A stretch of DNA of 64,000 nucleotides from a virus. The notes under the pieces were generated by a model. It ran no database searches and was not told where the DNA came from. It saw only the letters and a list, made by a program, of their open reading frames with translations. Below, one piece after another: positions 12,887-30,670 of the stretch. Location: positions 1 to 64,000 of IMG/VR virus record IMGVR_UViG_3300034071_001414; one strand, given 5' to 3'. The translations under genes were made by a program, and so were the position numbers. How positions within the stretch are numbered: the first letter of the stretch is position 1; every line of letters starts with the position of its first letter.

Positions 12887-13704
12887 TGAATCGCACATTT
12901 CTTAAGTGGGCAGGAAACAAAACAAGGGTCCTGCCCCATCTTATTCCACATATCGGTTATCCAAAACGATATTGTGAACCATTTAGTGGCAGTCTATCTG
13001 TTGCACTAAACACATCAGCAGAGCAATACATTCTGAATGATATCAATAAAGATTTGGTTGCAATCTATCTGAACTTGGTGAATCCAAATGATGATAGTTT
13101 TATTAAATATTGTGAAGAACTGTTTATTCCCGAAAACAATACAAAAGAAGCATATCTAGAGTTTAGGGAATACTTCAATAAATGCGCAAATAGCATAGAG
13201 AGAGCAAGACTGTTTATCTACTTAAATCGTCATTGCTTTAATGGGTTATCACGATATAATAGTAAAGGAATGTTTAATGTTCCCTTTGGTAAGTATGATA
13301 AACCATCGTGCCCATCAGAGGAAATGTGGAACTTCCGTATGTTCTTCTTATCAAAGAAACTTGTGAGATTTACATCACTTTCCTTTGAAGATTCATCTCT
13401 TTATGATGAACTTGAAGCAGGTGATACTGTCTATATGGACCCACCCTATGTTCCTGCCTCTGATACTGCAAACTTTACAAGTTATGCAACAGAAGGATTT
13501 ACTCATCAGCAGCAAGTTCAATTAGTAGAATTGGCAGAATCTCTTGCATCCAGAGGTATTAAAGTAATCGTATCAAATCATAATGTTCCAATCACACAGG
13601 AACTTTATAAAAATGCAACGATATATCCGATTCAAGTGACTAGAACTATTGCTGCCAAGGGTGGAAGTAGAAAGAAAGCAAATGAACTTATTGCTGTTTA
13701 CTAA
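12886..13704 (+). CDS. dam: DNA adenine methyltransferase, Dam family
   Basis: FLKWAGNK, EPFSGS (SAM motif I), RYNSKGMFNVPFG, DPPY (motif IV). Confidence 0.95.
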   Translation: MNRTFLKWAGNKTRVLPHLIPHIGYPKRYCEPFSGSLSVALNTSAEQYILNDINKDLVAIYLNLVNPNDDSFIKYCEELFIPENNTKEAYLEFREYFNKCANSIERARLFIYLNRHCFNGLSRYNSKGMFNVPFGKYDKPSCPSEEMWNFRMFFLSKKLVRFTSLSFEDSSLYDELEAGDTVYMDPPYVPASDTANFTSYATEGFTHQQQVQLVELAESLASRGIKVIVSNHNVPITQELYKNATIYPIQVTRTIAAKGGSRKKANELIAVY

Positions 13705-13748
13705 CTTGGATCCTCTAAAGTGTTCCAGTAATGTAAGCAACACTTCAA

Positions 13749-14162
13749 ATGGCAACTCGCTCACGAATCGGTCTTGAACTTGCAGACGGTTCTATTCTCT
13801 CCATCTACTGCCATTATGATGGTTATCCTGAGTTCAATGGTGCAAAACTTGTAGAAAACTTTAACTCCTACGAAAAAGCATCTGAACTGGTTGATCTTGG
13901 AGATATTTCTTGTCTTTGGACTAACGCTGGTTGGAATAATGAAACTCTCCCAGAAACTGGTCCTCTTCCTTACTCTCAGCGTGGTGATAATTGTCCTCCT
14001 CGCCTTGATGCTGACCTGTGTGAGTATCTTCTGCCTGATAATAGCGAAGAGTTTGCATATGTCTTCCGCAATGGTGAGTGGGTGTGCTATAATATGAATC
14101 AGTTTGATGATGCCAAACTGCCCGAAATTGTTGAAATCCCCTCTGCTGCTCTTGCTGTTTGA
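13749..14162 (+). CDS. Conserved-looking phage hypothetical protein
   Basis: MATRSRIG...SIYCHYDGYP; first gene after repeat copy 1. Confidence 0.7.
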   Translation: MATRSRIGLELADGSILSIYCHYDGYPEFNGAKLVENFNSYEKASELVDLGDISCLWTNAGWNNETLPETGPLPYSQRGDNCPPRLDADLCEYLLPDNSEEFAYVFRNGEWVCYNMNQFDDAKLPEIVEIPSAALAV

Positions 14163-14353
14163 TATATGAAAACTTCTACTACTCTTGCTGCTGCCTTTGT
14201 TGTTATTGTCCTTGCTACTGCTGGACTTTTCTTTGAAGCGTGGTTACTTGGACTCATTCTGTCTTGGTTCAATGTATCGTTGACCTTCTGGCAGAACTTT
14301 GCTATCATTGCTCTTGCTAATCTGATTTTTAAAAATACTGGAGTTTCTTCTAA

Positions 14354-14773
14354 ATGAACAAACAAAACGGATTTATTGACCCCAGTGTTGCTGTTGTTGG
14401 TCTTGCTGGTGTAGTTATTATTTTTGGTCTTGCTTTTGGTCTTCCACAGTATGGCGTTTATACCAAATCTCTAAATGGTAAAGCGCAACTTATGGAGGCG
14501 GAGTACACACGTCAAACTGCCGTATTGGAAGCACAAGCAAAGAAAGATTCTGCACAACAACTTGCTGATGCTGAAGTGATTCGTGCTCAAGGTGTAGCAA
14601 AAGCGAACTCCATTATCGGAGATAGTCTAAAAGGTAATCCTGCTTATCTTCAGTACCTATGGATTACTCAAGGAGAAGAAAACACCAGTCGAACTGTTTA
14701 TATGGTTCCCAGTAATGGTGGCGCACCTGTACCTACTTTTGATATTCAACAAGCACCTGTTATCAAGAAATGA
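14354..14773 (+). CDS. Membrane-anchored protein resembling SPFH/band-7 C-terminal region
   Basis: N-terminal TM helix; AEVIRAQGVAKANSIIGDSL...YLQYLWI coiled-coil signature. Confidence 0.6.
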   Translation: MNKQNGFIDPSVAVVGLAGVVIIFGLAFGLPQYGVYTKSLNGKAQLMEAEYTRQTAVLEAQAKKDSAQQLADAEVIRAQGVAKANSIIGDSLKGNPAYLQYLWITQGEENTSRTVYMVPSNGGAPVPTFDIQQAPVIKK

Positions 14774-15420
14774 CCAAAAAGCACATTGTCGCTGGATTGA
14801 TTGGTTTTGCAGTCATTCTTGGTTGGAATGTCTTTCTAATCCAGCGTGATGATAAGATGTATGATGCTTACTATCGTCAACAAGCAGTTCAACAACAAAA
14901 ATGACACTCCCATTTGGTATTGTACTTTACTTGTTAATTACTGCACTTGTGTTAGGATTGATTACATACTATTTCAAAGTGATTAGACCTAATGATGAAA
15001 GACGATTTGACACCTGAAGAGAAAAAGATTATCTTTCATGCTGTCAGGTATTGGCAAATGCACAAAGCAGCATTGAACGGCAAGGAATATCAAACCTGTG
15101 AGAACATTCTAAATCGCTGGTTTGATGATGTCTACACTCAACGAAAGGAGCAACAACGATGATTGAATACAACGAAGAACGCAAAGATCTGCAAATTGAT
15201 CGTAATGCTGATGACTTTTGTATGTGGGTAGAGGAGCAAGCAGCAAAACTGGAAATTACTTGCGACTATTATCTTGCGGAGTTTATGTGACATTCATCTT
15301 TGGATTTGCACTTGGAGTTCTTGCAACACTGGGAGTAGCACTTATTCTTGCTGCCGAATAAAACCCACTTGACGAAGACGACAACAACAACTAAAATAAA
15401 GAGGTAATTTACAACAGACG

Positions 15421-15651
15421 ATGAAGCATTTTTACATTGTTGACTACTGGGTTCCGTTTCCTTCTTCCGAATATGGTGGAGTAATCAATGTTATCGCAGA
15501 AAATGACATTGAATGTCACGATATTCTACGAGACTCAGATGATTATGATGCTAGGTATCACTCAAAGATTATGGAACGAGTAGTTGCTGCTCCTCGCTTC
15601 ACTCTTGTAGATGAAGAAGAGTCCCGTATTGTTGAATCCTTTACCACCTGA
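15421..15651 (+). CDS. Hypothetical protein
   Basis: ORF after TTGACG-17-TAAAAT promoter (15369-15397) and GAGG. Confidence 0.6.
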   Translation: MKHFYIVDYWVPFPSSEYGGVINVIAENDIECHDILRDSDDYDARYHSKIMERVVAAPRFTLVDEEESRIVESFTT

Positions 15652-15820
15652 TTATGACTCATCACGTTGCACACACAAACAAAATGCTTTTTGACTTGAA
15701 AGAACAGTATCAGGCACAAATTCAACGTCTGCAATCTAAAATTGATGATCAAGAGCAAGAGATTGCTAAACTCAAAACTATGATTACTCTTTTGTCTACA
15801 GAACGTGATTATGACTGCTG

Positions 15821-16120
15821 ATGAAACTCTCCATTGATTTGATACCTCAATTCAAGCATAAACCACCTGAAGGTTATTCTTATGAAGTTGAAGAGTTCAA
15901 GCGTAACGTGTTTTCTATTTGGTTGCGTTGTCACCGCCAGTTTGATTACAATAATGGAAAATCTACACGCACCATCTGGGGGTGGTACGACTACAAAAAG
16001 TGTAAGTTCTTTAGTCCTGTAAATAGTACCACAGTTGGCAAAGAAGTGAAGTTCAGTGATACTCGTTGCTGGACTTCTATGCCCATTAACTATCAAGGAT
16101 TGGAGGCATTTTTCGTATGA
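15821..16120 (+). CDS. Hypothetical phage protein
   Basis: Clean 99-aa ORF in operon. Confidence 0.6.
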   Translation: MKLSIDLIPQFKHKPPEGYSYEVEEFKRNVFSIWLRCHRQFDYNNGKSTRTIWGWYDYKKCKFFSPVNSTTVGKEVKFSDTRCWTSMPINYQGLEAFFV

Positions 16121-16521
16121 TTTTCAGCGAAGGAACAGAAGTGATTTACAAAACTATCTCTGGAGTGGTAGCATTTGCCTCTGAGCAATCTATCTCAATT
16201 CTAGTCAGTGAGGGAAATCACAAATCACAAGATGTTCGCGTAGTTGTCTATCAATCTGATTTCAATCAAGTTGTTTTTGCAGATGGGAAATGAAGAAGAA
16301 TAGCAACTGGTGGAGATGGTGGGCAAAGTCAATTGGAGAGAAAGCATCCAAATGCGATAAAGAAAGCGACACGGTTGCGGTCATTCGCACCGTGATTTTT
16401 GCTACTTACTTGATTACAAACTGTTTTATCATTTATGGTGTACTGAGAACTCATCACTTTCCAACACAACCTAAAGTTGTTAGATGTTCGATAAAATAAA
16501 TATCTAAAAAGTATAAGTAAA

Positions 16522-16920
16522 ATGCTGACATTTAGAGAGTTTTATACTATTTGCGAAGGGAAAAAACCAAATGTTCACCCCTATGCAGTTCCTGGTACTT
16601 ATCAAGAAAAAGATGGTGTAAAGACATATACTCTCAAGAGAGATGATGCACCAAAGAGAGAACCAATCAAGTCTGCAAAGAAAATAACCAAAATGCTTGA
16701 TAAGCAGGGTGGAATTGGTGGTAAAGCAATCAAGAAAGCAAAGAAGATTGAAGAACAACATCCAATAATGCAACCTAATGAGTATAACAAGCAAATTGCG
16801 CGTCAATCTGTTCGTTGGAAGGGAATGCAGATCCGTCAGGCACACGGAGAAATGGAGCACGAAGCAGGAGCACAACTAGCAGCAAAGAAAGCAAGAATGA
16901 AAGCAATTATGAGTCGTTGA
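16522..16920 (+). CDS. Basic late protein, probable internal head protein
   Basis: AATAAATA upstream; N-terminus MLTFREFYTICE resembles T4 capsid-targeting sequence. Confidence 0.5.
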   Translation: MLTFREFYTICEGKKPNVHPYAVPGTYQEKDGVKTYTLKRDDAPKREPIKSAKKITKMLDKQGGIGGKAIKKAKKIEEQHPIMQPNEYNKQIARQSVRWKGMQIRQAHGEMEHEAGAQLAAKKARMKAIMSR

Positions 16921-17560
16921 TACTTACTTGGATCCTCTAAAGTGTTCTAGTAATGTAAGCACAAAACAAATTATGGACCGTTTCGACGATATTCAAATTG
17001 AAGAGTTTTCTTCTTTTGATTTTGTTGAGGAAATGAATGAAGGTCTCTTTGATGAAGATGAAGAAGGTGAACAACCTTCAAAGTTTAACCTGAATGAGTA
17101 CATCAACGGCAATTATGATTATTGATTATGACTGCTGATACTTATACTTTTACTGGTGATGCTGTTACCTTCCTTGGTTTGGTTGGTGTTATCTCAGCGT
17201 TTTTTATTGTTGTTACTTCTTTTCGCAGGTTTTTCAACAGTCCTTATAACATTCGTATAACTCCTAAAGTTAATCAAAAAACCACTACTGAAACTACTGA
17301 ATCCTGAACTAATGACTCAAACTGTAAATGTTCTGCCTCATCTTAACGAACTGAAAGATGCTTGGCGTAAGCAAGATTTCAAATTCACTGCATCACAACA
17401 AGAGCAATATGATATTTTGATTGCTGCTCGTCGTGAGCGTGTTCATTACTTCTATGAGAACAATCTAGTGTTCAAAGGTTCTAAAGCAGCAGCAGATAAG
17501 GCACTTGGTCTACTTGAGGATGCTGACTGATAAATAACTCAAAGTAGTTTTTAGATACAG

Positions 17561-18145
17561 ATGAAAACCTTTCAGGAGTTTATTGTCGAAGCATACGATA
17601 AGGAGGTTATGGGTTCTTCTCAAATTAGAAGAACTGGTGAAGGTGGACGTATCGGTGCGGATCGTCGTAAATCAACTCCTGAAAGGCGTAGGGTTAAGGC
17701 AGTTGGTGGTGGTAAAACTGAACCAGTTGCCTATAAAGATAGAAAGGATATTGGTACTCAAAGACAAGCATCCACAAGAGTTCAACAACCAACACAAGAA
17801 CGTGGAAGTGCTGATGTAAAAGCAAAGGCAGCAGAAGCAGCAAAAGAAGAAAGAAAGAAAGCAGCATTAGCAAGAATTGCTGCTAAGAAAGCAGGTGGAT
17901 CTGCACCAGCAGCATCTCAACCTAAAGCAAAGGAAGCATCTGCAACTGCAAGCAAACTTCTATCCAAAAAGAAAGAAGAAAAACCTGTAAGTCCTGATTA
18001 TAAACCAGCAAAAGCATCTGGTTTAAGCAGACAAGAAAGATTGAAAGTAACCAGACAAGGTGAAGCAAAACTGAGAGATTTGGTTCTTAAATCAACAGGC
18101 AAGACATCTGAAAAGCAATTAAAGCATCGCTACACTTCTCGCTGA
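17561..18145 (+). CDS. Lys/Ala-rich late protein, probable internal head protein
   Basis: GATAAATA upstream; N-terminus MKTFQEFIVEA vs T4 capsid-targeting sequence MKTYQEFIAE. Confidence 0.6.
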   Translation: MKTFQEFIVEAYDKEVMGSSQIRRTGEGGRIGADRRKSTPERRRVKAVGGGKTEPVAYKDRKDIGTQRQASTRVQQPTQERGSADVKAKAAEAAKEERKKAALARIAAKKAGGSAPAASQPKAKEASATASKLLSKKKEEKPVSPDYKPAKASGLSRQERLKVTRQGEAKLRDLVLKSTGKTSEKQLKHRYTSR

Positions 18146-18734
18146 TACCTACTTGGATCCTCTAAAGTGTCTCAGTAGTATAAGCACTGAGCACTAAATG
18201 ACCTTCACTGTTACTGACAAACCCCAAATCATTAACGGCATTGAGCACACTGTCACTGCAGTTAATGGTTTGGACCGTGTTGAAATCAATAACAAACTGC
18301 ATGACATTGGCGACCAAATTATGAAACTGCGGATGCAACAAGATGCACTCGTTCAGATGCGTAACCTGATTGACCGACAATGTGAAATCAGTGAAATGGA
18401 TTCCTTGTTTGATGAGATGTTTGGTAGTTGATATAGTGTCGCCAGAGCAGTCTAGATGCCTCTAGAAGTGCTCTATTTTAGTCTTTAGATACCAAACCAC
18501 TTGAACTGATGAAATACATTAAAGTCCCCGAAACTGCACTTGAAAGGCTAATTGAAGGACTTGAAAGTGCAGTGAATGTGTGCTATACTGCTCCTAACAA
18601 TCCTGGTATTGAAGGGTATCCTTATGCGACTGGATATTCTCGCTCTGCGATGCAACAAGTTATCAAAGACCTTCAATCGCTGAAGACTCAGGCAAAGTGA
18701 CTGTAACTTGGATCCTCTAAAGTGTCCTTATAAT

Positions 18735-19982
18735 ATGATGATGAACCAAATGCAAATCCAACTCCGTCCGCATCAGGAACGTGGCGTTGCTGCGATGGCA
18801 AAGTATAACAAAGGTCAGGTGATTGTCCCCACTGGTGGTGGCAAGACTCTGAAGATGATCTATGATGCTCTGCGTGAGTTGCAGTCTGAAACTCCCCAGA
18901 CTATTGTAGTGGTTGCTCCTCGCATTCTGCTGGCAGAGCAACTCTCTGCAGAGTTCCTTGAGTTTATCACCAATGCTGCGGTGCTTCACATTCACAGCGG
19001 TGAAACTCATCACGAATCCTCTACTCATCCTCGTGTAATCCGTAAGTGGGTTGATGCCAATGCTGACAATCACAAACTGATTGTAACCACCTATCACTCT
19101 CTGTCTCGCCTTCAAGCAGCAGAGATTGATGTGGATACGATTTACTTTGACGAGGCACATAACAGCGTTCAGCGTCACTTCTTCCCTGCAACAGAGCACT
19201 TTGCTGCTAATGCACGACGCTGCTACTTCCTGACGGCAACCCCGAAACATTCCCTTGCTATGGGTAAACCTGGGATGAATGATGCGTCTGTTTATGGTCA
19301 GGTAATCTGCAAAGTTCCTGCTCCTGAACTTGTTGAGGGTGGATACATTGTGCCCCCTAAAGTTATCGTCAAGCAACTGGAGATGGTGAAGGGCAAGCAG
19401 ACCAACTTTGACCGCGATGCAGAGAATCTGCTGGAAACGATTGATGAGAACAGCGTTGGTAAGATTCTGATTTGTGCTAAGGCAACCAAGCAAATCGTGT
19501 CTCTGGTGTCTGAAACTGACTTCTGCCACGAACTACAGCAGCGTGGTTACTCTTGGATGTATATCACTGCCAAGACTGGTGCAGTGATTGATGGCAAGAA
19601 AGTGAACCGTGAGGTATTCTTTGACACTCTCTCTGCCTGGGGTAAGGATAACGACAAGAAGTTTGTTGTTCTACACCATAGCATCCTAAGTGAGGGCATC
19701 AATGTGTCTGGACTTGAGGCAGTGTTGTTTATGCGGAATATGGACTTTATTGGCATTTCCCAAACTATCGGACGCTGCATCAGGTTGCATCACGATGATG
19801 CTCGTAATCTTGCTGCTGGCAATATCCAACCAGGCGCTCTGGATTCCTATACCAAATCGTTCGGTCTTGTGTGTATTCCAGTTTACTCAAAAGTAGGAAT
19901 TGCTACTGCTCGCTCGGTGCAGGCAGTTGTTGATACGATTTTTGAAAAGGGAGAACCTGCTGTGTCGGTGGTGAGGCGGTGA
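18735..19982 (+). CDS. Superfamily 2 (DEAH) helicase
   Basis: LRPHQ, PTGGGKT (Walker A), DEAH, TAT, QTIGRCIR; start 18735 or 18750. Confidence 0.9.
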   Translation: MMMNQMQIQLRPHQERGVAAMAKYNKGQVIVPTGGGKTLKMIYDALRELQSETPQTIVVVAPRILLAEQLSAEFLEFITNAAVLHIHSGETHHESSTHPRVIRKWVDANADNHKLIVTTYHSLSRLQAAEIDVDTIYFDEAHNSVQRHFFPATEHFAANARRCYFLTATPKHSLAMGKPGMNDASVYGQVICKVPAPELVEGGYIVPPKVIVKQLEMVKGKQTNFDRDAENLLETIDENSVGKILICAKATKQIVSLVSETDFCHELQQRGYSWMYITAKTGAVIDGKKVNREVFFDTLSAWGKDNDKKFVVLHHSILSEGINVSGLEAVLFMRNMDFIGISQTIGRCIRLHHDDARNLAAGNIQPGALDSYTKSFGLVCIPVYSKVGIATARSVQAVVDTIFEKGEPAVSVVRR

Positions 19983-20016
19983 GTCTCACCCCAGTCTCAC
20001 TGAGACCTCAGTGTTC

Positions 20017-20040
20017 ATCGGGGTCAAAACCCCGATTTTT
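20017..20040 (+). terminator. Rho-independent terminator after helicase
   Basis: ATCGGGGT-caaa-ACCCCGAT-TTTT. Confidence 0.7.
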
Positions 20041-20296
20041 CTTCAATTCTACTGCAGAGGTGTCATAGGTCATCCGCTGCAATCAAATCACCGATTTTTT
20101 AGAAAGTGTAACTATGAAACAAGGATTCACGATGTTCAAAGACACATATGCTGCAATTCCTTACGGGAATCAGTATCTCATCATCTATAATGGTCAGCAA
20201 CTTGATAAACTTTGTAGGACTGAGAGTTCTGCCCGCAAATATATCACAGACCACAGAAAAAATTGTTCTAATGCAAAATTACCTATTGAGTAATTA

Positions 20297-20405
20297 AATA
20301 AATAATAGTGCCTGAAGTTGACTGACATCTCTACAGGTGAGAGGGGAGCAGAGATGCTCCTTTTCTTGTATAAATACTTAAGTCAGTCAACTTAAGAGCA
20401 GAACT
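20297..20405 (+). ncRNA. Putative antisense sRNA cassette 2
   Basis: AATAAATA 20297-20304; AAGTTGACTGAC 20315-20326 complementary to GTCAGTCAACTT 20382-20393; terminator GGAGCA-gaga-TGCTCC-TTTT; TATAAATA 20369-20376. Confidence 0.6.
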
Positions 20406-21080
20406 ATGGTAAATCCATACAGATTTTATACTTATGCTTATTTGCGTGAGGATAGAACTCCTTATTATATTGGGAAGGGAACTAATAAAAGATTATATGT
20501 TAGGGGAAAAACAGATATAAAACCACCAAAAGATAAGTATAGAATAATCTATCTCAAACAAAATCTAACTGAAGAAGAAGCATTTAAACACGAAACTTAT
20601 ATGATTGCGGTATTCGGTAGAAAAGATTTAGGAACTGGTATTCTTCATAACAGAACTAATGGTGGTGATGGATCTTCGGGAGTGGTAGTAAGTGAGGAAA
20701 CTAAATTGAAAATGAGCAAAACAAGAAAAGGAAAATCTTTTAGTGGGGAGCATAAAAGGAAAATAAGTGAGGCAAAGAAACAACAAACAGAAGAAACGAG
20801 AAAGAAGATAAGTCAGGCAAATAGGGGCAAAAAACGTAGTGAAGAACAAAGGAAGTTAATGAGTGAAAGAGTAAAGGGGAGAAAACACTCTGAAGAAACT
20901 AAAAAGAAAATGAGTGAAAAAAGAAAGGGAAGAGTTTTTTCTGAAGAACATAAACAAAAAATAAGAGAAGCACTTTCTGGTATAAAACGTTCAGAAGAAA
21001 CTAAGAAAAAGATTAGTGAAGCATCAAAGGGAAGAACTCCTTGGAATAAAGGTGTATCAATGGGCAAACTTCCTTTGTGA
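20406..21080 (+). CDS. GIY-YIG-type homing endonuclease with NUMOD3 repeats
   Basis: FYTYAYLREDRTPYYIGKG; LHNRTNGGDG; repeated (K/H)SEETKKK(M/I)SE. Confidence 0.85.
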   Translation: MVNPYRFYTYAYLREDRTPYYIGKGTNKRLYVRGKTDIKPPKDKYRIIYLKQNLTEEEAFKHETYMIAVFGRKDLGTGILHNRTNGGDGSSGVVVSEETKLKMSKTRKGKSFSGEHKRKISEAKKQQTEETRKKISQANRGKKRSEEQRKLMSERVKGRKHSEETKKKMSEKRKGRVFSEEHKQKIREALSGIKRSEETKKKISEASKGRTPWNKGVSMGKLPL

Positions 21081-21373
21081 TACTAACTTGGATCGTCCAA
21101 AGTGTCCTTGTAGTATAACCACTCATCTCTGAATGACTTTTTACTGGAAGTTCTTTGATACTCTTGTCTATAATGTTGCTACTATCTGTGCATTTGTTGT
21201 TGCAGTGAGTCAGTTCCTGATTCGCTCTTTCAATGAGAACGATGGAAGCAATAAAGTTCGCAAGTTTATCAACCAAACTCTTCTGTTTGTGAATCGTTCT
21301 ACCTCTACAGTGTATAACTTCGTTAATGAAGATACTCTGCCTGAAGTAAAGAAACCCAAGCGTAGTGCCGCTT

Positions 21374-21424: not shown

Positions 21425-21652
21425 CCTTTGTTCTTGAAACTCCAATGATTTTTCTCACTGTTCCTGGTCACGGTTGCGTTTATACTCTCTCGCAAGAAGA
21501 TGGAGATGAGTTGTACTATGCACCCATTATGCAAGATGGTAGTGTAAATCTAGAGGAGTTTGCACCTGTAGATCTTGACGCTGCAGATATGGACGAAATG
21601 GAACTGTTTGACATTCGCAATCGTCTTCAAAAACTGGTTGAGGTTTGATTAT

Positions 21653-21751
21653 AATAAATAATGATGCTTATGTTTGGTCGCACAAGCACATTGGAGGGGC
21701 AGAAATGTCCCTCTTTTGATATAAATAATCAAGACCAAACATAAAGCAGTT
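21653..21751 (+). ncRNA. Putative antisense sRNA cassette 3
   Basis: AATAAATA 21653-21660; stem TGCTT/AAGCA; TTATGTTTGGTC 21668-21679 complementary to GACCAAACATAA 21733-21744; terminator GAGGGGCA-gaaa-TGTCCCTC-TTTT; TATAAATA 21720-21727. Confidence 0.6.
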
Positions 21752-22378
21752 ATGAATAAAATTATCCTTTTACGGGATGAAATAATTTCCGTATACAAAC
21801 AAACTTACTCTGTTATTCAAGTTTTAGAGCATTTTGGTTATTCTCGAAAGAGTGTAGAAGGAAGAAAACAAATAACTGACATTCTAAAAGAAGAAGGTAT
21901 ATTTGAGGGATTGACTGGTCCTAATGTCATAAAAATGAAGCATCAAAGGGCAAAGAAAACTATGCTCGAAAAATATGGTGTAGACAACTACTCTCACACT
22001 GAATGTGGATCTAAAAATCTACATAATCACAGACAAAAAAGTTATTTTCCTGTAATAGAAGAGTTTAGAAAATATCAGAGTGAAGTTAATAAAGAAACAA
22101 AAAAGGCAATGAGAAAGATAAAAGATAAACCAACTCATTGTGAATACCTTGGTATCAAGTTTGTAGATGATAAAATAGCAAATCCTAACGACCAATTAAA
22201 AAGGACAATAGACCATAAGAAGTCGGTTTATAATTGTTGGTTAGAGGGAATATCTGCAAAAGAAGCATCTTCGCCAGATAATCTTGCTTGGGTTTGTAGA
22301 TACATCAACAGTATAAAAGGAAATGCTGATTATGATGACATTAAACACATTTTTCCCAAAATAAAAGACAAATTGTGA
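21752..22378 (+). CDS. Putative HNH-like free-standing endonuclease
   Basis: KTMLEKYGVDN segment; C-terminal RTIDHKKS...DNLAWVCRYINSIKG (H-N-N); AT-rich. Confidence 0.6.
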   Translation: MNKIILLRDEIISVYKQTYSVIQVLEHFGYSRKSVEGRKQITDILKEEGIFEGLTGPNVIKMKHQRAKKTMLEKYGVDNYSHTECGSKNLHNHRQKSYFPVIEEFRKYQSEVNKETKKAMRKIKDKPTHCEYLGIKFVDDKIANPNDQLKRTIDHKKSVYNCWLEGISAKEASSPDNLAWVCRYINSIKGNADYDDIKHIFPKIKDKL

Positions 22379-22441
22379 CACTTTAACAACTGACCACCCC
22401 TTCTTAACTTTAACTTGGATCCTCTAAAGTGTCCTTATAGT

Positions 22442-23353
22442 ATGAGCAAGACAACCACTAAAAACCTGCACCTTGAGCACCCTGAAGATATGGTGCTGAC
22501 TGGAAATCTTGAGGTTCTTGATTGGTTCTCCGAACCTGATAGTTTTATCTCTGTAAAACTTGATGGTGCGCCTGCTGTGTGTTGGGGCACTAATCCTGCC
22601 AATGGCAAGTTCTTTGTGGGCACCAAATCTGTGTTCAACAAAGTTAAAATCAAAATCAATCATTCTCACGATGAAATTGATTTGAACCATCAGGGCAAGG
22701 TTGCTGATATTCTTCACGCTTGCCTTGATTATCTCCCTCGCATCGCAGGTATTGTTCAGGGTGACTTTATTGGTTTTGGTGGTTCTGATACTTATTGCCC
22801 CAATACTATCACCTATAAGTTTCCTGAGGTAATCACCCAAAAGATTATCATTGCTCCGCATACTTGCTACACTGCAAAGAATGATTTGCGTGATGCAGTT
22901 GCTCAACCCGACTTCTATTTGTGGGTGGATACTGCAGATGTGATGTTTGTCAAACCTGAAGCATCACTGAGTCCTTATCGTGAGGATTTGGAGGATGTGT
23001 GTAAGTTTGCCAAGCAAATGAGCACTCTATGTGAGTTTGTGAGCGATAAGAAGGCAACACAAATCAAAAAAGAGATTAACTCCTGCATCAGGGAGCAACG
23101 GGTCATCTGTGAGGATGAAATTGCAGAAAAATGTAATTGTGATAAGAACCTGATTCGTTTGTGGAAGTTGGTTGCATCTATTAAAGCAGATTTGTTCCTG
23201 TTCATTCACGAAGAGGATGAGATTGAATGTTATCTGTGGGATGTGCAATCCTTTCACGAGGGTTATGTCATCACCAACAAGTTTGGCACCTATAAAGTAG
23301 TTGACCGCGAGACATTCTCTCACGCAAACTTTACTGCTGCCAAGAGTTGGTAA
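22442..23353 (+). CDS. Conserved phage protein with ligase-like nucleotidyltransferase motifs
   Basis: KNLHLEHPED; SVKLDGAP (KxDG), VQGDF, HEGYV, YKVV. Confidence 0.55.
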   Translation: MSKTTTKNLHLEHPEDMVLTGNLEVLDWFSEPDSFISVKLDGAPAVCWGTNPANGKFFVGTKSVFNKVKIKINHSHDEIDLNHQGKVADILHACLDYLPRIAGIVQGDFIGFGGSDTYCPNTITYKFPEVITQKIIIAPHTCYTAKNDLRDAVAQPDFYLWVDTADVMFVKPEASLSPYREDLEDVCKFAKQMSTLCEFVSDKKATQIKKEINSCIREQRVICEDEIAEKCNCDKNLIRLWKLVASIKADLFLFIHEEDEIECYLWDVQSFHEGYVITNKFGTYKVVDRETFSHANFTAAKSW

Positions 23354-23387
23354 TGCTTACTTGGATCCTCTAAAGTGTCCCAGTAGT

Positions 23388-25556
23388 ATGAGAAAAACAC
23401 ATCGCTTCCAAACTTTCAAAGAGGCACTCAACTTTCTGATGAGTGAGTTGAAGATGAGCAATCAACAGGCAACTCATTTCATTTGGGACAATCAGTTTAC
23501 TGTGGGAACTGACCGTGCAATTTGGATTACTGAACCTGCAAACTGATTATGACTGACTTCTACGATTATGTTTTGAGTTTTTATGGTGCTGATGGATTGT
23601 ATCCTATGGGAGCAACTCTGAAACTCATCAAACAAGCAACTTCCACTCACATTAAGATACTTAAACTGAAAGGTGATGAGTTTGCTGGTGACAGTATTGA
23701 CCGCGAATGTGTAAGGGATTTGTTGATTAGTAAGTATAATCTTAAGTTTCCACGATGACTTACTCTAACCTCTCCAAGATTAAACCTAAACTTCGCACTG
23801 AAGGTAGGGTTTCTGGTAATTTCGGCAAATTGAAAGTTAAAGCAGGTTCTTCACTTAATGAGATTGGAATGAGCAACAAAGAGACTATCAAATGTGCCAC
23901 ACCTGATGAGTATCTGGCACGGCTTCATTATGCCTTTGACAATACTGAAGACAAGAAATTGAAACAGTTTCTTTACACTGAGATTCGCAAGATTCATGTT
24001 CAGCGTGGCACTTGGTAGGGGTTAGTAACTTGGATCCTCTAAAGTGTCCTAGTAGTATGAACAACACCATCGTTTCCGAAATCTACTCTTACCACACCGA
24101 TTGGAAGGAAGGTAAAGTCAATCAAATGTGGATTGAACAAATTGGTAATGCTGATTGTGGCAACAAATATGTCGCTGTTGCACACAATCCTCGCAATGGT
24201 TCTACAATGGAGATGAGCAACCCTCGCACATCTTACCACGAAACTCTCAACTGGGTTCGCGGTTTCTGTGGCACTTTCTGTATCCTCCCTGCCTGATTAT
24301 GACTAATCCAACTTGGGAAGAACTCAAACAAGAGGCACTCACTGAAGCATTAGAGTTCTACATCTATCGACTCAAAGAGGACAACTGCAATCAAGCAGCA
24401 ATAGATTTATTCACTCAAGTTCTCAAGGAAGTTAATCCTAACGATGATTAACAATATCAGTCGCCAACACTGGGACACTCTTTATACCAAACTCTACGAG
24501 GCATATGAAGAATGTTCTAAGAACTATGATGAGACTTATCGCCAAATGATTGGTCAGGTTCTTGACCATATGATTTACAATCAACCCTACCTGAACATCA
24601 AATGAAATACGAAGTTAAACTCTACGTCGGTGGCAAAGTCTTCAAAGAGGAAGTATATGCTAACTCTCCAAAGGATGCCGGCGAAACAGCAACAGCACGA
24701 AATCCTACAGCAAAAGTAATCGGAGTGAATGTGAAGTTTCTGTGATAGAAACTTGGATCGTCCAAATTGTCCCTATAGTATGAGCACTTCCCAAACGATG
24801 ATTGAGTTCCCTACACTTCAGTCTAAAGACGGCACAATGCTGGTAGGTTTCTATCCTATCGCTGATTCCTCTAATCACACTCTCAAGGTTCTATCTTGGA
24901 AGGGTGTTGATACTATCTCCCGCAAGTGCATCAGCAAAAAAGATGCAATCCGTGAGATTGATGAGCGTCTCGCAATGGATTATCTTATCACTGGTGATAA
25001 CATTGATCTGGTGCAAGAATACAACATTATGCAAGGTGCAGTTTGATGACGAAAACCACTCTTACTTTCAAAGAGATTGATGCACTTCTCAAGTTCATTG
25101 AATTTCACACTGATTCATTCTCCGATGAAGAATCTGCAGAAGAATTGAATGAACTTGTGGGGTGTGATGTTGATGCACTCTACAACAAACTTTCTGAAAT
25201 GCAGGATGAAGTCTGATGCGAATTGCCTTTTTGATTGTTACTCTTGCTCTTGGACTTCGCGTAGGTAATGCAGCATATGCAACCGTAAATGAGTATCAAG
25301 AACAACAAGCAGACAATTTCTGTCAAATAGACCCCAACTATTGCAAATGATTGCCCTTCCTAATCCTACAAGCAAAATGACATTCAACCGCGAACAACTC
25401 ATCGCTGATTATGCTCAGCAAATCCTAGATGGGATGGATATGAAAACAATGGAGTGTTTCGTTTATGACACTTTGAAAGACAATCTTATGCCATATACTG
25501 ATGAGGAACTGATTGAAGAGGTTAGAGAATACAATCCCGAATTGCTGGATGATTGA
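23388..25556 (+). CDS. Short hypothetical cassette genes (23388-23546, 23549-23758, 23755-24018, 24057-24296, 24602-24745, 24780-25046, 25377-25556 and others)
   Basis: Co-oriented small ORFs between repeat copies 7-10. Confidence 0.65.
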
Positions 25557-25602
25557 AACTTGGATCGTCCAAATTGTCCCTATAGTGTAAGACTCAACCA
25601 CA

Positions 25603-26193
25603 ATGCCAAAACTTACCACTCTGCAGGTATCTGCCAAACTGAAAGTAACTGATTTCAGTGCATTTGGCAAACCAGCAAAGAACAAAGGTGCTCGCGGGCA
25701 ACTGTTAGAAACTGCTCTGGGAGTTCCTAACTCATCTGACCTCAAAGATCTGGAGGATGGTGAGATTAAGACTTTCACTGTTGGTGAGAGCATCGCAGCA
25801 ACACAATTGAAGCACTGTTTGTCTGAAATCATCGAAGATTCTGTGTCATTTGATGAGAGTAAGGTTGGACAGAAACTACAACAAACTGTGTATGTTGGAT
25901 TCACACGTTCCAACGATTATGTGGGTTCTGCTATTCTGAATGAGGAAACTCACCCTGAACATTATCAGGAACTGCGTGAGGATTACGATTTCATTTGTAA
26001 CAGCATCCGCACACTTTTTGATGCTGGTAAACAACTTTCTACCATCACTGGACCTAACGGATTGCTGCAGATTCGCACAAAAGCATCTAAAACCAATGGT
26101 TGCTATGTACCTCTGACCTTTGCAGGTGTGACGCTTAAGGATAAGGGAATGGCATTCTATCTGTGTGGTCAATTTGGACGCAACCTGTTCTGA
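25603..26193 (+). CDS. mutH: MutH/Sau3AI-family endonuclease
   Basis: NKGARGQLLETALG..D..GEIKT, ELREDYD, LQIRTKA, AFYL parallel E. coli MutH DKGWIGVLLE..D..ELKT, LREDWE, LQIRPKA, GFYL. Confidence 0.8.
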   Translation: MPKLTTLQVSAKLKVTDFSAFGKPAKNKGARGQLLETALGVPNSSDLKDLEDGEIKTFTVGESIAATQLKHCLSEIIEDSVSFDESKVGQKLQQTVYVGFTRSNDYVGSAILNEETHPEHYQELREDYDFICNSIRTLFDAGKQLSTITGPNGLLQIRTKASKTNGCYVPLTFAGVTLKDKGMAFYLCGQFGRNLF

Positions 26194-26228
26194 ACAGTAA
26201 CTTGGATCCTCTAAAGTGTCCTAGTAGT

Positions 26229-28943
26229 ATGAACACCAATCAAATCGACTTTCAAACCGACATCACTCCTACACTTTTGGAGTTTATGTGCAACAATCAC
26301 ACTGACTTGAATGACTGTGTAGACTTTGTTTGCTGTCTCTTTGATCTCAATGCAACTGATGAATTGATCGATCAGATTGCAGATGAGTTTGATGCTTTCT
26401 TCGGCAACTGATTCACACTAACTGTTTTCCCACTAAATTACACTGAAATGACAAACAAAAACCCTTACGTTCAAACCCTAATTGAGATGGGTTATGATGA
26501 AGCAGACTGCCAAATGGTTGCTGATGCTGGAAGAGTAAATGTAACCTATCCGCGTAACATTTACGGTCGCATCTTTGAGACTGAAGCAGAGTACAAAGAT
26601 GCTCTTGCTGATTATATCAACGGTCTCTGACTGATAAGCATCAGTAACTTGGATCCTCTAAAGTGTCCTAGTAGTATGAACGCTTCCCAAATGCAAAACA
26701 CTTACACTTCACCCGATACAAACAAAGTTTATACCATCATCGAATCGCAATCTGAGCGTGGTGCATGGGATGAAAATGGCAATTATGCTCCGAAAGTTGT
26801 CACTCAGTACAGCATCTATGATAATACTCAGATGGTACAATTTGCATTCGATGTAGATGGAATTGCCAAATCTGTGAGGCATTATGAAGGTTTCACTGAT
26901 GGTTGGACTTCCTCACGATTTGACTGATAGTAACTTGGATCCTCTAAAGTGTCCTAGTAGTATGAGCACTAACCAAATGATTCAAGATAACATCGACCGC
27001 ATTCAAGATAGCATCAATCTCACGTCTAAACTTGCCCGAGACAATTATGATGCTCGCAATGGCATTATTGACCACATGAGAATTGATTGGTCTGAACATG
27101 CTCATCGTTTGACTTATATTGCAGGTGAGTGTTCTTATTACTTTCCTCTGCACAATCAGAACGGTGATAAGATTAACGAGGTAAAACTCTATTGTCGTTG
27201 CTCTCCTACTGTAAAAGGTGGAGTTCGCTTCTCTTATACTCTGAACGGTAAGACTATTGCTCGTTCTAAGATTGTAAATCGGATGATTGAATTGGGAGTC
27301 TGAATGTCACGCAAGACTCTAACATTCAAATCCCCAGATAGAATGAAAGTTGTCACATTAGTTTTCATTGTTGCACTTGTCTTTTCACCATCAGTAAGAC
27401 AAACAACCGCATCCATTCTTCATACCACTGCCGACATTCTTTCCCCACAACAATGAAGCAAACTCTAATCGATTCGATGTCGTCTACACTTATGGAGCGT
27501 CTTGAGTTCTTTGTAAGTCAAGATGATTATGCCACCTCAGATGCACTTTACTCTGAGTTTATTGTGAATGGAGTAGATCCAGAAGATGGAGAGTATGAGT
27601 GGTTTTTTATGAAATCCCTTTGCTGTTAGAAACTTGGATCCTCTAAAGTGTCCTAGTAGTATGAGCACCAACGAAACCAAGAAAATGAATCTGTATATCA
27701 TCAACAACGTCCTGTCTGATTATACCTCTGGAATGGCAGTGATTGCTGCTGAATCTAAAGAACAGTGCCGTGAGTTCTTTATAGCAGAGTTCAGCGAATA
27801 TCATGCTGATGAGTTCGATAAGTGTGCAAAGTTCACTGTGATTGAAGGTGTGAATCATTCTGCTGGTATGGTAGACTATGTGTACGGTGGAGGTTAATCA
27901 AACTTATTCCTTCAGTAACAGAAACTAGGATCCTCTAAAGTGTCCTAGTAGTATAAGCACTCAACCCCAAACAAATGACCCGCCTAATCGAACAACAAAT
28001 GAACATTGCAATCAATCAAGAGGTTGATTGGAAGAAGGATAACACTCAAGTGATTAACATTGAAGGCGTAAGTTTCGTCTATCTGTTTGACAATCTGATT
28101 GCAATGATTGGTGATACTTGGATGGAATTGTTTGATGGTGGTTATAAGTCAGTAACCACAAAGTCGCGTCTCAATGCTATTCTCCAAGCACACGGAAATG
28201 GAGAGTATGTGTATCAAAAGAACTTCAACTGGTTTGTATCAACCAAGGATGGAGAAGTTGCTTTCAACAATGGTATCAAACTGAACTAAGTTATGAACAA
28301 TCAAGTCTTCGGAGTCTTTGCCCGTGATAATGATTATTACGCACAACTTGAACTTCACAAACTATTCTTCAACGAACAAGATGCAGAGGTTTATGCACAA
28401 CAACTTCGTGAAATGAATTATACTGATGATGATGCTAATGCTAATGATGAGATGATATATGAAGAAGTTGAAGTCTGCAAACTGAAGGTGAATTAACTGA
28501 TGAAAAAGTATATTTTCCAACACTGCAATAGTAACAAGATTAAGACCATACTTGCAAGGTCAGAGTATAAAGCAACGACTCAAAACTTTGGCAATCTTGC
28601 TGGTTACAAGTTCGTTCAATCATTCTCTCTTAACTGATGACTAACGAACAAAAGATTGATGCACTCGTTGAACTTCTCAATGACGTAATGCACACTCTGA
28701 ATATGAAACAGTATTGTATTGATGATGCAACTGAATCTCATCAATGTGAGGTAGAAGCAGACAACTATCACCAACAAATGCTGAACATTCTTCACTCTCA
28801 AGAAAACAACTAAATGACATTCACGATTCGTTATTTTACTCCCTATCAACAAGTCTGGAGAACGCAATCATTCTCTACACTTGATGAAGCAAAACGTATG
28901 GTTGAGTTTTATCGTTCTTGTGGTAGTCCTGCAGAGTTAGTAT
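26229..28943 (+). CDS. Short hypothetical cassette genes (26229-26411, 26448-26630, 26676-26927, 26962-27303, 27661-27897, 27975-28289, 28293-28496 and others)
   Basis: Small ORFs following repeat copies 11-15. Confidence 0.65.
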
Positions 28944-29037
28944 AATCATAAGAGGAAAGGAGTTTGCCTCTATTAAGTAAAGAAAGTGACTTCCGTAGAG
29001 TATAGATAATTCAACTAATTGGTGGATGGGTGTATAG

Positions 29038-29068
29038 AGAGAGGGACTGGTTATCCCTCTCTTTTTTT
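29038..29068 (+). terminator. Rho-independent terminator at the convergent junction
   Basis: AGAGAGGGA-ctggtta-TCCCTCTCT-TTTTTT. Confidence 0.75.
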
Positions 29069-29074
29069 ATGCTT

Positions 29075-29614
29075 TTATGGATGAGGTAAAGTATTCATTA
29101 CCTTACGCAATCCGTATTGGTTGATATATTGTTCTAATGCACCTTCAATTATACTATTTGTGAACTCATAAGAGTTAGGAACTGGTAATCCTTTACGATG
29201 AGAAGCAGCGTGAACTTCTTTAATCTTATTCGTTACATAATTATCCAGAACAAATCCCTTAGTTTGTGATAAATGTTCCATATTTTGTTTTCTACTTATC
29301 CACTCAAGATTCTCAATTCTGTTATCACATTGGTTGCGATTGATATGATTAACTTCCAGTGTGAAATCGTCACAGGGTAAGTATGCCATAGCAACTAACC
29401 TATGAACATACAAATTACGCTTGTTTCCCTTGTCATCAGATAGTCTAACGAACAAATAGTTGCCCCTTTTCTTTGCCCATCCTGGACGTAGTTTCTTTAC
29501 CTTGTTATACTTGAAAGACCAAACATTGCCATTTACATCTATAGCATAATCACCAAACTTCTCTAAACCTTTGATTTCATTCAGGTTCTTAAGTCTAACT
29601 GTTGGGACTTCCAT
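29075..29614 (-). CDS. NUMOD4-HNH-type endonuclease; the only convincing minus-strand gene
   Basis: YAIDVNGNVWS, YVHRLVAMAYL, EVNHINRNQCDNRIENLEWISRKQN. Confidence 0.85.
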   Translation of the reverse strand: MEVPTVRLKNLNEIKGLEKFGDYAIDVNGNVWSFKYNKVKKLRPGWAKKRGNYLFVRLSDDKGNKRNLYVHRLVAMAYLPCDDFTLEVNHINRNQCDNRIENLEWISRKQNMEHLSQTKGFVLDNYVTNKIKEVHAASHRKGLPVPNSYEFTNSIIEGALEQYINQYGLRKVMNTLPHP

Positions 29615-29619
29615 TTCAT

Positions 29620-29655
29620 AGTATTTTCTACTAAATCTATGTAGTAGAAAATACT
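29620..29655. repeat. Perfect 14-bp inverted repeat just upstream of the HNH gene
   Basis: AGTATTTTCTACTA-aatctatg-TAGTAGAAAATACT. Confidence 0.9.
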
Positions 29656-29929
29656 TTTTAGAGAGTGGATAATGTATGATTAAATTATAGTGAGTAAATG
29701 ATAAAAAGGTATAATAGTTGTGTAATCTCTCTGTGTGCTTATAAATGTGCTGAGGTCTTGTTAGCTAAGACAGCATAACATAAGGACCGCACTTTTGTCA
29801 ACTCCGGGGTCACAAAATCCTCACAATCCCCTGCCAAAATGTCACACCCCGAGCATAAATACCCCCAACACCCTTGACATTAACCCCACAGCATCTTATA
29901 GTAGTTCCATAACACCAAGGAGAACACTT

Positions 29930-30103
29930 ATGTCGGTTGCATATCAACAAGCACAGAAGCAGCGTTATAGGGTCACTCTGGATTTGGCAGTGTTCGGTGA
30001 CTTCGATCCACATCAAATCGACTGGGAGCGGTTATTTAAGTTGGAACCTGCTGAACACTGTGAGGCATATGTTGAGGACTTAAATACACCTGATAGTTGG
30101 TGA
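29930..30103 (+). CDS. Hypothetical protein
   Basis: TTGACA(29874)-17-TATAGT promoter, AAGGAG SD, ATG 29930. Confidence 0.7.
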   Translation: MSVAYQQAQKQRYRVTLDLAVFGDFDPHQIDWERLFKLEPAEHCEAYVEDLNTPDSW

Positions 30104-30137
30104 GTTGGTATCATTTTATACCAAAAGTAGGGGTTTT

Positions 30138-30186
30138 ATTTTGTTAACATAAAGCATACATATTAGGTCCTTTATGTTAACAAAAT
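30138..30186. repeat. Perfect 17-bp inverted repeat overlapping a start codon
   Basis: ATTTTGTTAACATAAAG-15 nt-CTTTATGTTAACAAAAT. Confidence 0.9.
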
Positions 30187-30364
30187 GAGAACTCTAAAAT
30201 ATAGTCATTTGGGTGAAATGGTCATCATAAGAGTAGCACAGAAAACGACCAAAGTGCTACCTTACCTGCAAGACCTTATGCAACAATTAGAGGAGAACGG
30301 TAGGGATAGTGATGAGGTGATACTGCAGGTCCTCGGAGAACTTGAAGAACGCTTGAGTAACTGA
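30185..30364 (+). CDS. 59-aa hypothetical protein, possibly ribbon-helix-helix-like
   Basis: Own translation: MRTLKYSHLGEMVIIRVAQKTTKVLPYLQDLMQQLEENGRDSDEVILQVLGELEERLSN. Confidence 0.5.
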   Translation: MRTLKYSHLGEMVIIRVAQKTTKVLPYLQDLMQQLEENGRDSDEVILQVLGELEERLSN

Positions 30365-30394
30365 AACTTGGATCCTCTAAAGTGTCCTAGTAGT

Positions 30395-30670
30395 ATGAGC
30401 ACAACCAGCACCCGCAAGATGACAACCTACCAAACCAATTTTCTGGAAACTGGTTATAATGGATGGAGTACTTATGAGACCTGGAACGTTGCTCTCTGGA
30501 TCAACAATGATGAGGGTCTTTATCACCTTGCTGCTGAGTGTGGTGATTACGAAACCCTTGTAAATCGTCTGTATGATGATTATGGGGTGCGTGAAACTAA
30601 GGACGGTGTAAAGTTCAATGACCCCAAAGTGAACGTGATTCAGATTAACTCTGATGTCTTTGATTTCTAG
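30395..30670 (+). CDS. Conserved-looking phage hypothetical protein
   Basis: YNGWSTYETWNVALWINNDEGLY; follows repeat copy 16. Confidence 0.7.
   Translation: MSTTSTRKMTTYQTNFLETGYNGWSTYETWNVALWINNDEGLYHLAAECGDYETLVNRLYDDYGVRETKDGVKFNDPKVNVIQINSDVFDF

Follow-up and report, generated by a model that had tools for sequence, protein, structure and literature searches.

A probable promoter-type repeat heading the small genes of one variable island in a T4-like freshwater cyanophage

The window, a stretch of 64,000 nucleotides from a 98.5-kb record, belongs to a T4-like cyanomyovirus (Kyanoviridae) from lake water and contains 16 direct copies of a repeat of approximately 38 nt, each of which is probably a promoter-type element of the phage's own, controlling the small non-structural ('early-type') genes of one island. 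The primary role of the repeat is most likely transcriptional, judging from its sequence, its position and its distribution among related phages. The switch-on of the first genes in T4-like cyanophages is poorly understood, and the early islands of these phages hold most of their unknown genes, probably for host takeover. To our knowledge, T4-like cyanophages do not have the MotA/AsiA system of T4. The array provides a clean, testable element, consisting of a core found throughout the family and a half which co-varies with lineage and could give a handle on whatever reads it.

The consensus of the repeat is AAC-TTGGATCCTCTAAAGTGTCC-N3-TAGTAT-(G/A)AGCAC. When the window was scanned with the 20-mer TTGGATCCTCTAAAGTGTCC, allowing up to 3 mismatches, 16 matches were found on the + strand and none on the - strand, with a chance expectation of 0.02. 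The full 98.5-kb record has the same 16 forward copies, no reverse copies and none beyond the array. The initial annotation had described 16 direct copies, all at gene boundaries and 286-3222 bp apart, and this was reproduced by both the repeat search and the 20-mer scan: the copies form one family on the same strand, and each sits between a + strand stop codon and the following + strand gene. The distances reported there between the stop codon and TTGGAT also agreed with our measurements, the gap being exactly 7 nt in seven copies (TTGGAT at 16928, 18153, 18708, 21088, 23361, 24753 and 26935) and at most 11 nt in 13 of the 16, with longer gaps at 22415 (36 nt), 26649 (18 nt) and 27926 (28 nt). 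Sequence identity was confirmed to span the full interval between two promoter-like hexamers, and was found to extend about 6 nt past the second (hereafter called the box). In this genome the hexamers read TTGGAT-N17-TAGTAT, with the ideal 17-bp spacing and with TTG and TA...T present. The start codon of the next gene lies in the box or 13-25 nt downstream of it; the leader is A/C-rich and a Shine-Dalgarno (GGAG-type) sequence was not found in the repeats of the window. The copies are as follows.

13703-13740, + strand: repeat copy 1, directly past the dam stop codon; box TAATGT, without a usable box ATG; gene start 13749
16925-16962, + strand: copy 2, box TAATGT; upstream stop 7 nt before; gene start 16973
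18150-18187, + strand: copy 3, TAGTATA; gene start 18198
18705-18742, + strand: copy 4, TAATATGATGATG; heads the SF2 helicase gene (18735-19982)
21085-21122, + strand: copy 5, variant GGATCGTCCAAAGTGT; gene start 21133
22412-22449, + strand: copy 6, box ATG at 22442; the DUF6267 gene (22442-23353) has no other start ahead of its conserved HLEHPED motif
23358-23395, + strand: copy 7, box ATG at 23388 the sole plausible start of its gene
24027-24064, + strand: copy 8, box ATG at 24057 the sole plausible start of its gene
24750-24787, + strand: copy 9, variant GGATCGTCCAAATTGT; left border of the slot-A cassette
25557-25594, + strand: copy 10, the variant of copy 9 with box TAGTGT; right border of the slot-A cassette; gene start 25603
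26199-26236, + strand: copy 11, box ATG at 26229 starting a gene absent from contigs L017 and L001, which have the following gene fused to the repeat
26646-26683, + strand: copy 12, box ATG, with another ATG in frame at codon 5
26932-26969, + strand: copy 13, slot B, the site of extra cassettes in relatives
27631-27668, + strand: copy 14, box ATG, with another ATG in frame at codon 8
27923-27960, + strand: copy 15, TAGGAT in place of TTGGAT; box TAGTATA; gene start 27975
30365-30402, + strand: copy 16, the last of the array; box ATG, with another ATG in frame at codon 8

The array occupies an island of small genes between the dam gene and the baseplate module. A complete relative of 284 kb has 14 copies, all of them in a single 18-kb island which starts right after dam, and the gene content of the island varies among approximately 15 relatives. 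GATC is present in every repeat of this lineage; its co-occurrence with the methyltransferase comes from a sample too small and too phylogenetically clustered to support a link. Two genes or inserts lie immediately upstream of repeats. The NUMOD3-type gene is absent from its position in L017, L027 and L007, and L001 has a family-22 homologue of it just upstream, together with an unrelated 1.1-kb insert inside the repeat.

12883-13704, + strand: D12-class N6-adenine (Dam-type, GATC) DNA methyltransferase gene, its stop codon abutting the first repeat
20406-21080, + strand: NUMOD3 homing-endonuclease-type gene, inserted immediately upstream of copy 5
21649-22410, + strand: 762-bp insert with an ORF at 21752-22378, immediately upstream of copy 6 and present only in this window

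The repeat consists of two halves which differ in their conservation. The right half, AAAG(T/C)GT-N5-TA(G/A)T(A/G)T-(G/A)AGCAC, contains the sole -10-like box and is common to distant cyanomyoviruses. In the form AAAG(T/C)GT-N5-TAGT(A/G)T it is also found in the marine Synechococcus phages SynMITS9220M01 (approximately 12 copies) and S-SM2 (approximately 11), in each case as a single-strand array in a syntenic island upstream of the baseplate genes. It is present in about 30 IMG/VR contigs, with weaker matches in the S-B05 and S-B43 group. Positions T1, A2 and T6 of the box TA(G/A)T(A/G)T are kept in 97 of 97 distinct instances, a figure partly imposed by the search pattern, and the (G/A)AGCAC which follows is retained whether it is coding or non-coding. 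The left half, here ACTTGGATCCTCT, is constant within each genome, varies between lineages and resembles a host -35 box in this lineage only: at the position of TTGGAT the sister lineages have AAGGAT, TAGGAT, TACTCA or GGGGGT, so that the -35-like hexamer is not conserved. The left half would probably be read by something different from the ordinary -35 contact of the host sigma factor. The motif of the window was not found in Syn9, which has a different five-copy repeat of 58 nt at 46.3-53.0 kb; the over-represented Syn9 word TGGTAATGTAA was rejected as a candidate element since it represents coding repeats. Three other registers read by eye were also rejected, namely TAAAGT as the -10 box (S-SM2 has TAAAGC), an ECF-type AAC...CGTC reading (the spacing fails in SynMITS9220M01) and a T7/SP6-like reading (the TATA part lies in the variable N5).

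Behind the right half, the cassettes of the distant marine cyanophages are unrelated to those of the window, and in SynMITS9220M01 and S-SM2 it heads genes at a variable distance of 0-71 nt, which argues for a role in expression. Where the box has no ATG, most genes have their first ATG 13-25 nt past it, most often at 16 nt and in a few cases as far as 43 nt away, a geometry resembling that of a promoter. The element is placed directly past the preceding stop codon and ends at the next start codon or 13-25 nt before it. In the 50 nt upstream of the 16 copies no stem-loop or terminator was found (fold against shuffled sequences, mean z +0.22); most of the stretches between copies lack terminators, so that transcripts would probably run through the later copies.

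The start codon embedded in the box constrains where transcription must begin. In copies with TAGTATG, the ATG can be read in frame, without a stop, into the downstream gene in 51 of 51 distinct cases, and about 25 of these have no other start nearby; in S-SM2 and SynMITS9220M01 the DUF6267 protein has its native start there. If TAGTAT were an ordinary -10 box, a transcript begun at that copy would lack the box start codon, and the 51 in-frame cases are at odds with such a box. Either these genes rely on read-through from upstream copies, or their transcripts begin before the ATG, in which case the box would be no classical -10. A more specific reading, which we offer tentatively and consider doubtful in its full form, is that the repeats represent a distinct class of T4-like cyanophage promoter, the left half of which would be read by a phage protein, brought in by the virion or made very early, or would in this lineage involve a GATC contact sensitive to Dam methylation. 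Transcription would then start just upstream of the embedded ATG and many early mRNAs would be nearly leaderless; such a start would explain why the ATG is in frame in all 51 copies and why, wherever the start of the gene is farther along, this ATG is mutated or directly followed by a stop codon.

Gain, loss and relocation of cassettes were assessed in a comparison set of approximately 15 related contigs. Gene order was collinear in all relatives, except for one cassette found in differing slots. Slot A of the window holds the following cassette.

24788-25556, + strand: slot-A cassette, gene families 34-37, with a repeat on each side

This cassette is absent from L017, L027, L046 and L001, while L008, L005 and L034 have a different cassette in slot A and L040 has a family-42 gene alone there. 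Slot B of L017, L027 and L046 holds an additional cassette of approximately 0.8 kb (42a-36-x3-37) between two repeats, and that of L001 holds 42-37. The position of the 42a-36-x-37 cassette depends on the genome: L008, L005 and L034 have it in slot A, and L017, L027 and L046 have it in slot B, the 42a protein being 79-91% identical across slots. For both the slot-A and slot-B cassettes, homology of the flanks stops inside the repeat at both ends. Gain, loss and relocation with breakpoints in the repeat occur at these two slots. When distant genomes are compared, identity is 72-80% for orthologous and non-orthologous repeats alike, against 82-91% for the paralogues of one genome, a pattern of concerted evolution within a genome.

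Repeat-bounded moves are thus real, but they provide a measure for the idea that promoter repeats drive shuffling, since they are not commoner than turnover at ordinary gene borders: 30 of 74 repeat junctions (41%) were broken, compared with 75 of 151 plain gene junctions (50%; Fisher p = 0.20). The crossover of the clearest recent recombination tract in the window falls on a plain gene border, 150 nt upstream of a repeat; there, 99% identity to L017 up to 24603 changes to 97-99% identity to L007 from 24602; the L007 contig ends at window position 25454, and the crossover is the left one of the L007-like tract only. The initial annotation had proposed cassette exchange analogous to that at PeSLs, organised by the repeat. 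The exchange itself was borne out by the events at slots A and B and by the concerted evolution, but its organisation by the repeat as a system was not, given the collinear order, the lack of enrichment and the crossover at a plain border. Its statement that no integrase was visible held in a wider search: neither PF00589 (integrase) nor PF00239 (resolvase) had a match in the 98.5-kb record, which is approximately 46% complete, and the sole recombinase seen there was of the RecA/UvsX type. With no enrichment at repeats and no stem-loop, integrase or resolvase, exchange at the repeats is therefore a side effect of homologous recombination and not the work of a dedicated system. The general recombination machinery (RecA/UvsX-type) would occasionally recombine the 38-nt copies because they are near-identical, and this could produce repeat-bounded deletion, insertion and relocation of gene groups as well as homogenised copies, as for PeSLs.

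That the repeat is instead a dedicated exchange site, either integron-like or a PeSL serving mainly for shuffling, with cassettes excised as circles and re-inserted at other copies, is quite unlikely. Such a site would account for the repeat-bounded events, the cassette in differing slots, the concerted evolution and an identity longer than a host promoter requires, but the collinearity, the junction counts, the plain-border switch between L017 and L007 and the lack of an integrase or resolvase in the incomplete record all speak against it, and the right half is kept in distant phages although their cassettes are unrelated, which suggests that it functions in expression.

We also regard it as unlikely that the repeat acts on RNA, as a standard translation-initiation region, a processing site or a RegA-type repressor operator in long early transcripts. 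Its length is about that of a ribosome footprint around the box AUG, which is always in frame where present and often the true start, and the A/C-rich stretch past the AUG and the missing Shine-Dalgarno sequence would suit such a role. Against this, 46 of the 97 boxes are without a usable AUG and their genes start 13-43 nt further on (71 nt past the box for the S-SM2 helicase), so that the geometry is not fixed, the element folds no better than shuffled sequence (mean z -0.33), and a -10 contact on DNA typically shows just such an invariant pattern, T-A-x-T-x-T. An ordinary host sigma-70-type promoter copied many times, with the extra conservation due to recent duplication or gene conversion, would fit the hexamers of this genome and their spacing, and concerted evolution is able to homogenise neutral positions. 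This explanation is nevertheless very unlikely, as the block between the hexamers, TCTAAAGTGT, is kept across marine and freshwater lineages despite their divergence in all other parts, the -35 position is not conserved, and the repeats are not among the best hits of a generic promoter scan. In addition, a search of approximately 185,000 prokaryote genomes with CTAAAGTGT-N5-TAGTAT gave, among the matches listed, scattered singles in unrelated taxa with no cyanobacterial enrichment and no host counterpart of the right half.

A phage-owned promoter-type element can be compared with several known systems. Like integron attC/attI sites, the repeat splits same-strand arrays of small gene cassettes, but no integrase and no folded attC-like palindrome were found here, and the repeat is promoter-like and lies upstream of each cassette. 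With T4 middle promoters (a MotA box at -30 and a sigma-70 -10) it shares a conserved -10-like box and a phage-specific upstream box in place of the host -35; the upstream box here is longer, nearly reaches the -10-like box and changes between lineages, and we know of no MotA/AsiA homologue here. A non-host-like conserved element upstream of the early genes of cyanomyoviruses, reportedly described by Doron et al. in 2016 (ISME J 10:1437), is said to be abundant and conserved among T4-like cyanophages. By this description it would belong to the same kind of island, and the right half shows such conservation here, though it is absent from Syn9. Full-text literature searches for the motif and for descriptions of cyanophage early elements gave nothing usable.

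The closest parallel is with the promoter-early stem-loops (PeSLs) of the T4-type phages RB49/phi1, T4/PST and KVP40/nt-1 (Arbiol et al. 2010, PMC2839356; Comeau et al. 2014, PMC4122927), although cyanophage S-PM2 was reported to be without dense PeSLs (Puxty et al. 2015, PMC4503421). The present repeat differs in having no upstream stem-loop or terminator and no Shine-Dalgarno sequence, in a -35 position which is not sigma-70-like in sister lineages, in a start codon often within the -10-like box, and in rearrangements which are not enriched at the unit. Both are repeated, highly conserved promoter-type units between small genes in a hyperplastic island of a T4-like phage, lineage-specific in sequence, adjoining insertions, deletions and replacements between close relatives and needing no dedicated recombinase. 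For the repeat-bounded events and the concerted evolution, the analogy with PeSLs appears fair.

The repeat search of the window placed 16 direct copies of one family between 13701 and 30422, spaced 286-3222 bp apart. With the 20-mer core and up to three mismatches, 16 matches were obtained on the + strand and none on the - strand (chance expectation 0.02), and the 98.5-kb record in full contained the same 16 forward copies and no reverse copy. The consensus is AAC-TTGGATCCTCTAAAGTGTCC-N3-TAGTAT-(G/A)AGCAC, with two internal variants, GGATCGTCCAAAGTGT and GGATCGTCCAAATTGT. The initial annotation gave exact distances between the preceding stop codon and the repeat: seven copies have a 7-nt gap, and the gap does not exceed 11 nt in 13 of the 16. 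Another intergenic repeat, weaker than the first, ACACT(A/C)ACTG...CACTAA..., precedes genes without the main repeat:

26415-26445, weaker repeat; loosely alignable to the main repeat, it may be a decayed copy of it or another promoter class
30680-30710, weaker repeat
30911-30941, weaker repeat

The nucleotide matches of the window are Synechococcus myoviruses. The array contains about 55 small + strand genes, among them those for an SF2 helicase, a DUF6267 protein, several PHROG families of unknown function and homing-endonuclease-type proteins. It is immediately preceded by a D12-class adenine methyltransferase gene and followed 3' by baseplate wedge, neck and sheath-stabiliser genes. Two giant ORFs, 36133-48615 (4160 aa) and 50197-57657 (2486 aa), lie amid the baseplate wedge genes. 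The same island with the same repeat type is found in SynMITS9220M01 and S-SM2, between tail-fibre or neck genes and baseplate genes, and a complete 284-kb relative has its 14 copies all within a single 18-kb island starting directly after dam.

An exact 16-mer of the repeat was found at 46 loci on about 30 IMG/VR contigs, mostly in multiple copies. Alignment of these loci with the repeat copies of SynMITS9220M01 and S-SM2 resolved the repeat into a right and a left half. The right one, AAAG(T/C)GT-N5-TA(G/A)T(A/G)T-(G/A)AG, is common to all lineages aligned; the left half is nearly uniform inside one genome but divergent between lineages, and TTGGAT, the apparent -35 box, is therefore peculiar to the lineage of the window.

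Table. Left half of the repeat by lineage
This window: ACTTGGATCCTCT
L040, a related locus: ACAGATAAGGATCCTCT
SynMITS9220M01: TTACTCACCTCT
S-SM2: AAGGGGGGTCGCCT

The block between the two apparent hexamers is conserved far beyond the requirements of a host sigma-70 promoter, as had been noted initially. No host counterpart was present among the matches listed in a scan of prokaryote genomes, and the motif of the window is absent from Syn9. Syn9 has an element of its own, of about 58 nt, (A/G)GTG(T/G)C(C/A)AC...CCCC...GT(A/G)TTCTATAAGAGTCAAAGG, which stops about 15-20 nt before the gene start in four of five copies and may be the published early element of Syn9. Doron et al. (2016) is the key work on cyanophage early elements.

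Table. Copies of the Syn9 element (locus L051; 46.3-53.0 kb of the record)
6303-6360
about 7220-7283
8572-8629
11014-11071
13010-13067

The description that suits the repeat best is a cyanomyovirus promoter-type element, family-wide in occurrence and here in a lineage-specific version, that heads early-type gene groups. Several observations make the promoter-type reading the best one. All copies lie on the coding strand, solely in front of genes. Their spacing from the gene start is variable, being 0 nt where an ATG embedded in the repeat is used, otherwise mostly 13-25 nt, and 71 nt in the case of the S-SM2 helicase. The -10-like box retains its T, A and final T, (G/A)AGCAC past the box is retained in coding and leader sequence alike, and no significant fold was found in the element. 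Promoter activity, early timing and read-through are what we infer from sequence.

The motif TAGTATG is present in 10 of the 16 copies in the window, and its ATG is in frame with, and open into, the downstream gene in all ten:

18735, 22442, 23388, 24057, 24780, 26229, 26676, 26962, 27661 and 30395, + strand, embedded ATG

The same was true of 51 of 51 distinct instances in the window and the related loci L001-L047, a count which takes in SynMITS9220M01 (L047) and leaves out the analogous S-SM2 copies (L063-L075), inspected by eye. The N-termini starting from the embedded ATG are often MSTNQ or MNTNQ, and in several genes it is the sole possible start. In about half of the 51 a second in-frame ATG occurs at codon 5-8, 13-22 nt past the box, which is the position of the gene start seen where the box has no ATG; about 25 instances have no nearby second ATG. 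Comparison of orthologues shows both ATGs in use as native starts. The DUF6267 protein begins at the embedded ATG with MKNTH(L/I)xHPED in S-SM2 and SynMITS9220M01, its N-terminus is MSTKP-MQNKHLEHPED in the related loci L001 and L017, and in the window only the embedded ATG is available. In L017 a deletion has joined the ATG of the repeat to the next gene at the native N-terminus of that gene. Boxes without a usable ATG read ATA, or GTG/ATG with TAA directly after.

Were TAGTAT a classical -10 box, a transcript from such a copy would start past the ATG, and the gene would need read-through from upstream copies. The ATG is missing in the first three to five array copies of the window, of the freshwater relative G004 and of SynMITS9220M01, which fits read-through; we consider the chances about even that the box is a classical -10 and that read-through serves the embedded-ATG genes. 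Transcription may alternatively start just upstream of the embedded ATG, giving nearly leaderless mRNAs, a possibility we consider somewhat less likely.

The initial annotation had proposed that cassettes are exchanged at the repeats. The + strand genes of the window and 15 related loci were called and clustered into families, and the repeats were placed on the gene maps. Two cassette positions, slots A and B, behave as predicted; gene order is otherwise collinear across the window and the 15 loci.

Table. Content of the two slots (numbered gene families)
Slot A (between families 33 and 38), window: 34-35-36-37
Slot A, L007: 34-35-36-x3, to contig end
Slot A, L008, L005 and L034: 42a-36-x18-37
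Slot A, L040: 42a alone
Slot A, L017, L027, L046 and L001: empty
Slot B (after family 41), window: empty
Slot B, L017, L027 and L046: 42a-36-x3-37
Slot B, L001: 42-37

At every junction of slots A and B the homology of the flank enters the repeat and ends there, which places the breakpoints in the repeat as anticipated. The 42a proteins of the two slots are 79-91 % identical. The slots are cases of repeat-bounded insertion or deletion with relocation, as would result if repeats recombined with each other or if a circle bearing a repeat re-inserted. The repeats evolve in concert, paralogous repeats within one genome being 82-91 % identical and orthologous repeats between distant genomes 72-80 %, equal to non-orthologous repeats.

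Each gene-to-gene junction of the window was also scored as kept or broken in each relative. Rearrangement was not enriched at the repeat: 30 of 74 comparisons had a repeat junction broken, against 75 of 151 for plain junctions (Fisher p = 0.20). Breakage in one lineage or more affected 8 of the 16 repeat junctions and 24 of the 44 plain ones. For many gains and losses of single genes, both ends fall at plain gene borders. Compared with other gene borders, the repeat is no hot spot. Over 23744-24603 the window shares 99 % identity with L017, and over 24602-25454 it shares 97-99 % with L007, a sharp mosaic switch; the adjoining segments are only about 70-87 % identical to either. The crossover that brought the slot-A cassette therefore lies 150 nt upstream from the repeat, where families 32 and 33 meet. 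Two of the inserts adjoining repeats are mobility of a different kind:

20406-21080, homing-endonuclease-type gene
21649-22410, 762-bp insert with an ORF without a Pfam match

In L001 a 1.1-kb insert (about 6020-7190, reverse strand as oriented in the alignment) lies within a repeat copy, directly after ...AAAGTGT. Both ends of the insert carry a duplicate of at least 36 nt of the preceding sequence, comprising the upstream gene end and the repeat's left part; the insert looks like a mobile gene landed in a putative promoter element. No integrase or resolvase was found in the 98.5-kb record, itself about 46 % complete; a RecA/UvsX-type gene occupies 97771-98514 of the record.

A Dam-type methyltransferase gene (12883-13704) adjoins the first repeat, and such a gene is also present in freshwater relatives with GGATCC-bearing repeats (G002, G004 and G005). 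No Dam-type homologue was found in SynMITS9220M01, S-SM2, S-B43 or Syn9, in which the elements lack GATC or the element is absent. GATC is under-represented overall (observed/expected 0.58), and 16 of the 34 sites in 13.7-30.4 kb are within repeats. A link between repeat and Dam is possible, judged by co-occurrence in a small, phylogenetically clustered sample. Most 4-bp palindromes are strongly under-represented in the whole window (observed/expected 0.12 for AGCT, 0.14 for GGCC, 0.24 for CGCG and 0.33 for TCGA), which suggests restriction avoidance; TGCA is over-represented (1.49).

Worth following up are an embedded start codon that is in frame every time, a left half that co-varies with lineage and a possible Dam link. 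The PeSL (promoter-early stem-loop) repeats of T4-type phages, to which the array had been likened, have a stem-loop and a Shine-Dalgarno sequence among their defining features; unlike them, the present repeat has no stem-loop upstream and does not include a Shine-Dalgarno sequence. It resembles PeSL repeats in that copies recombine with one another and in some cases form the borders of cassette changes.
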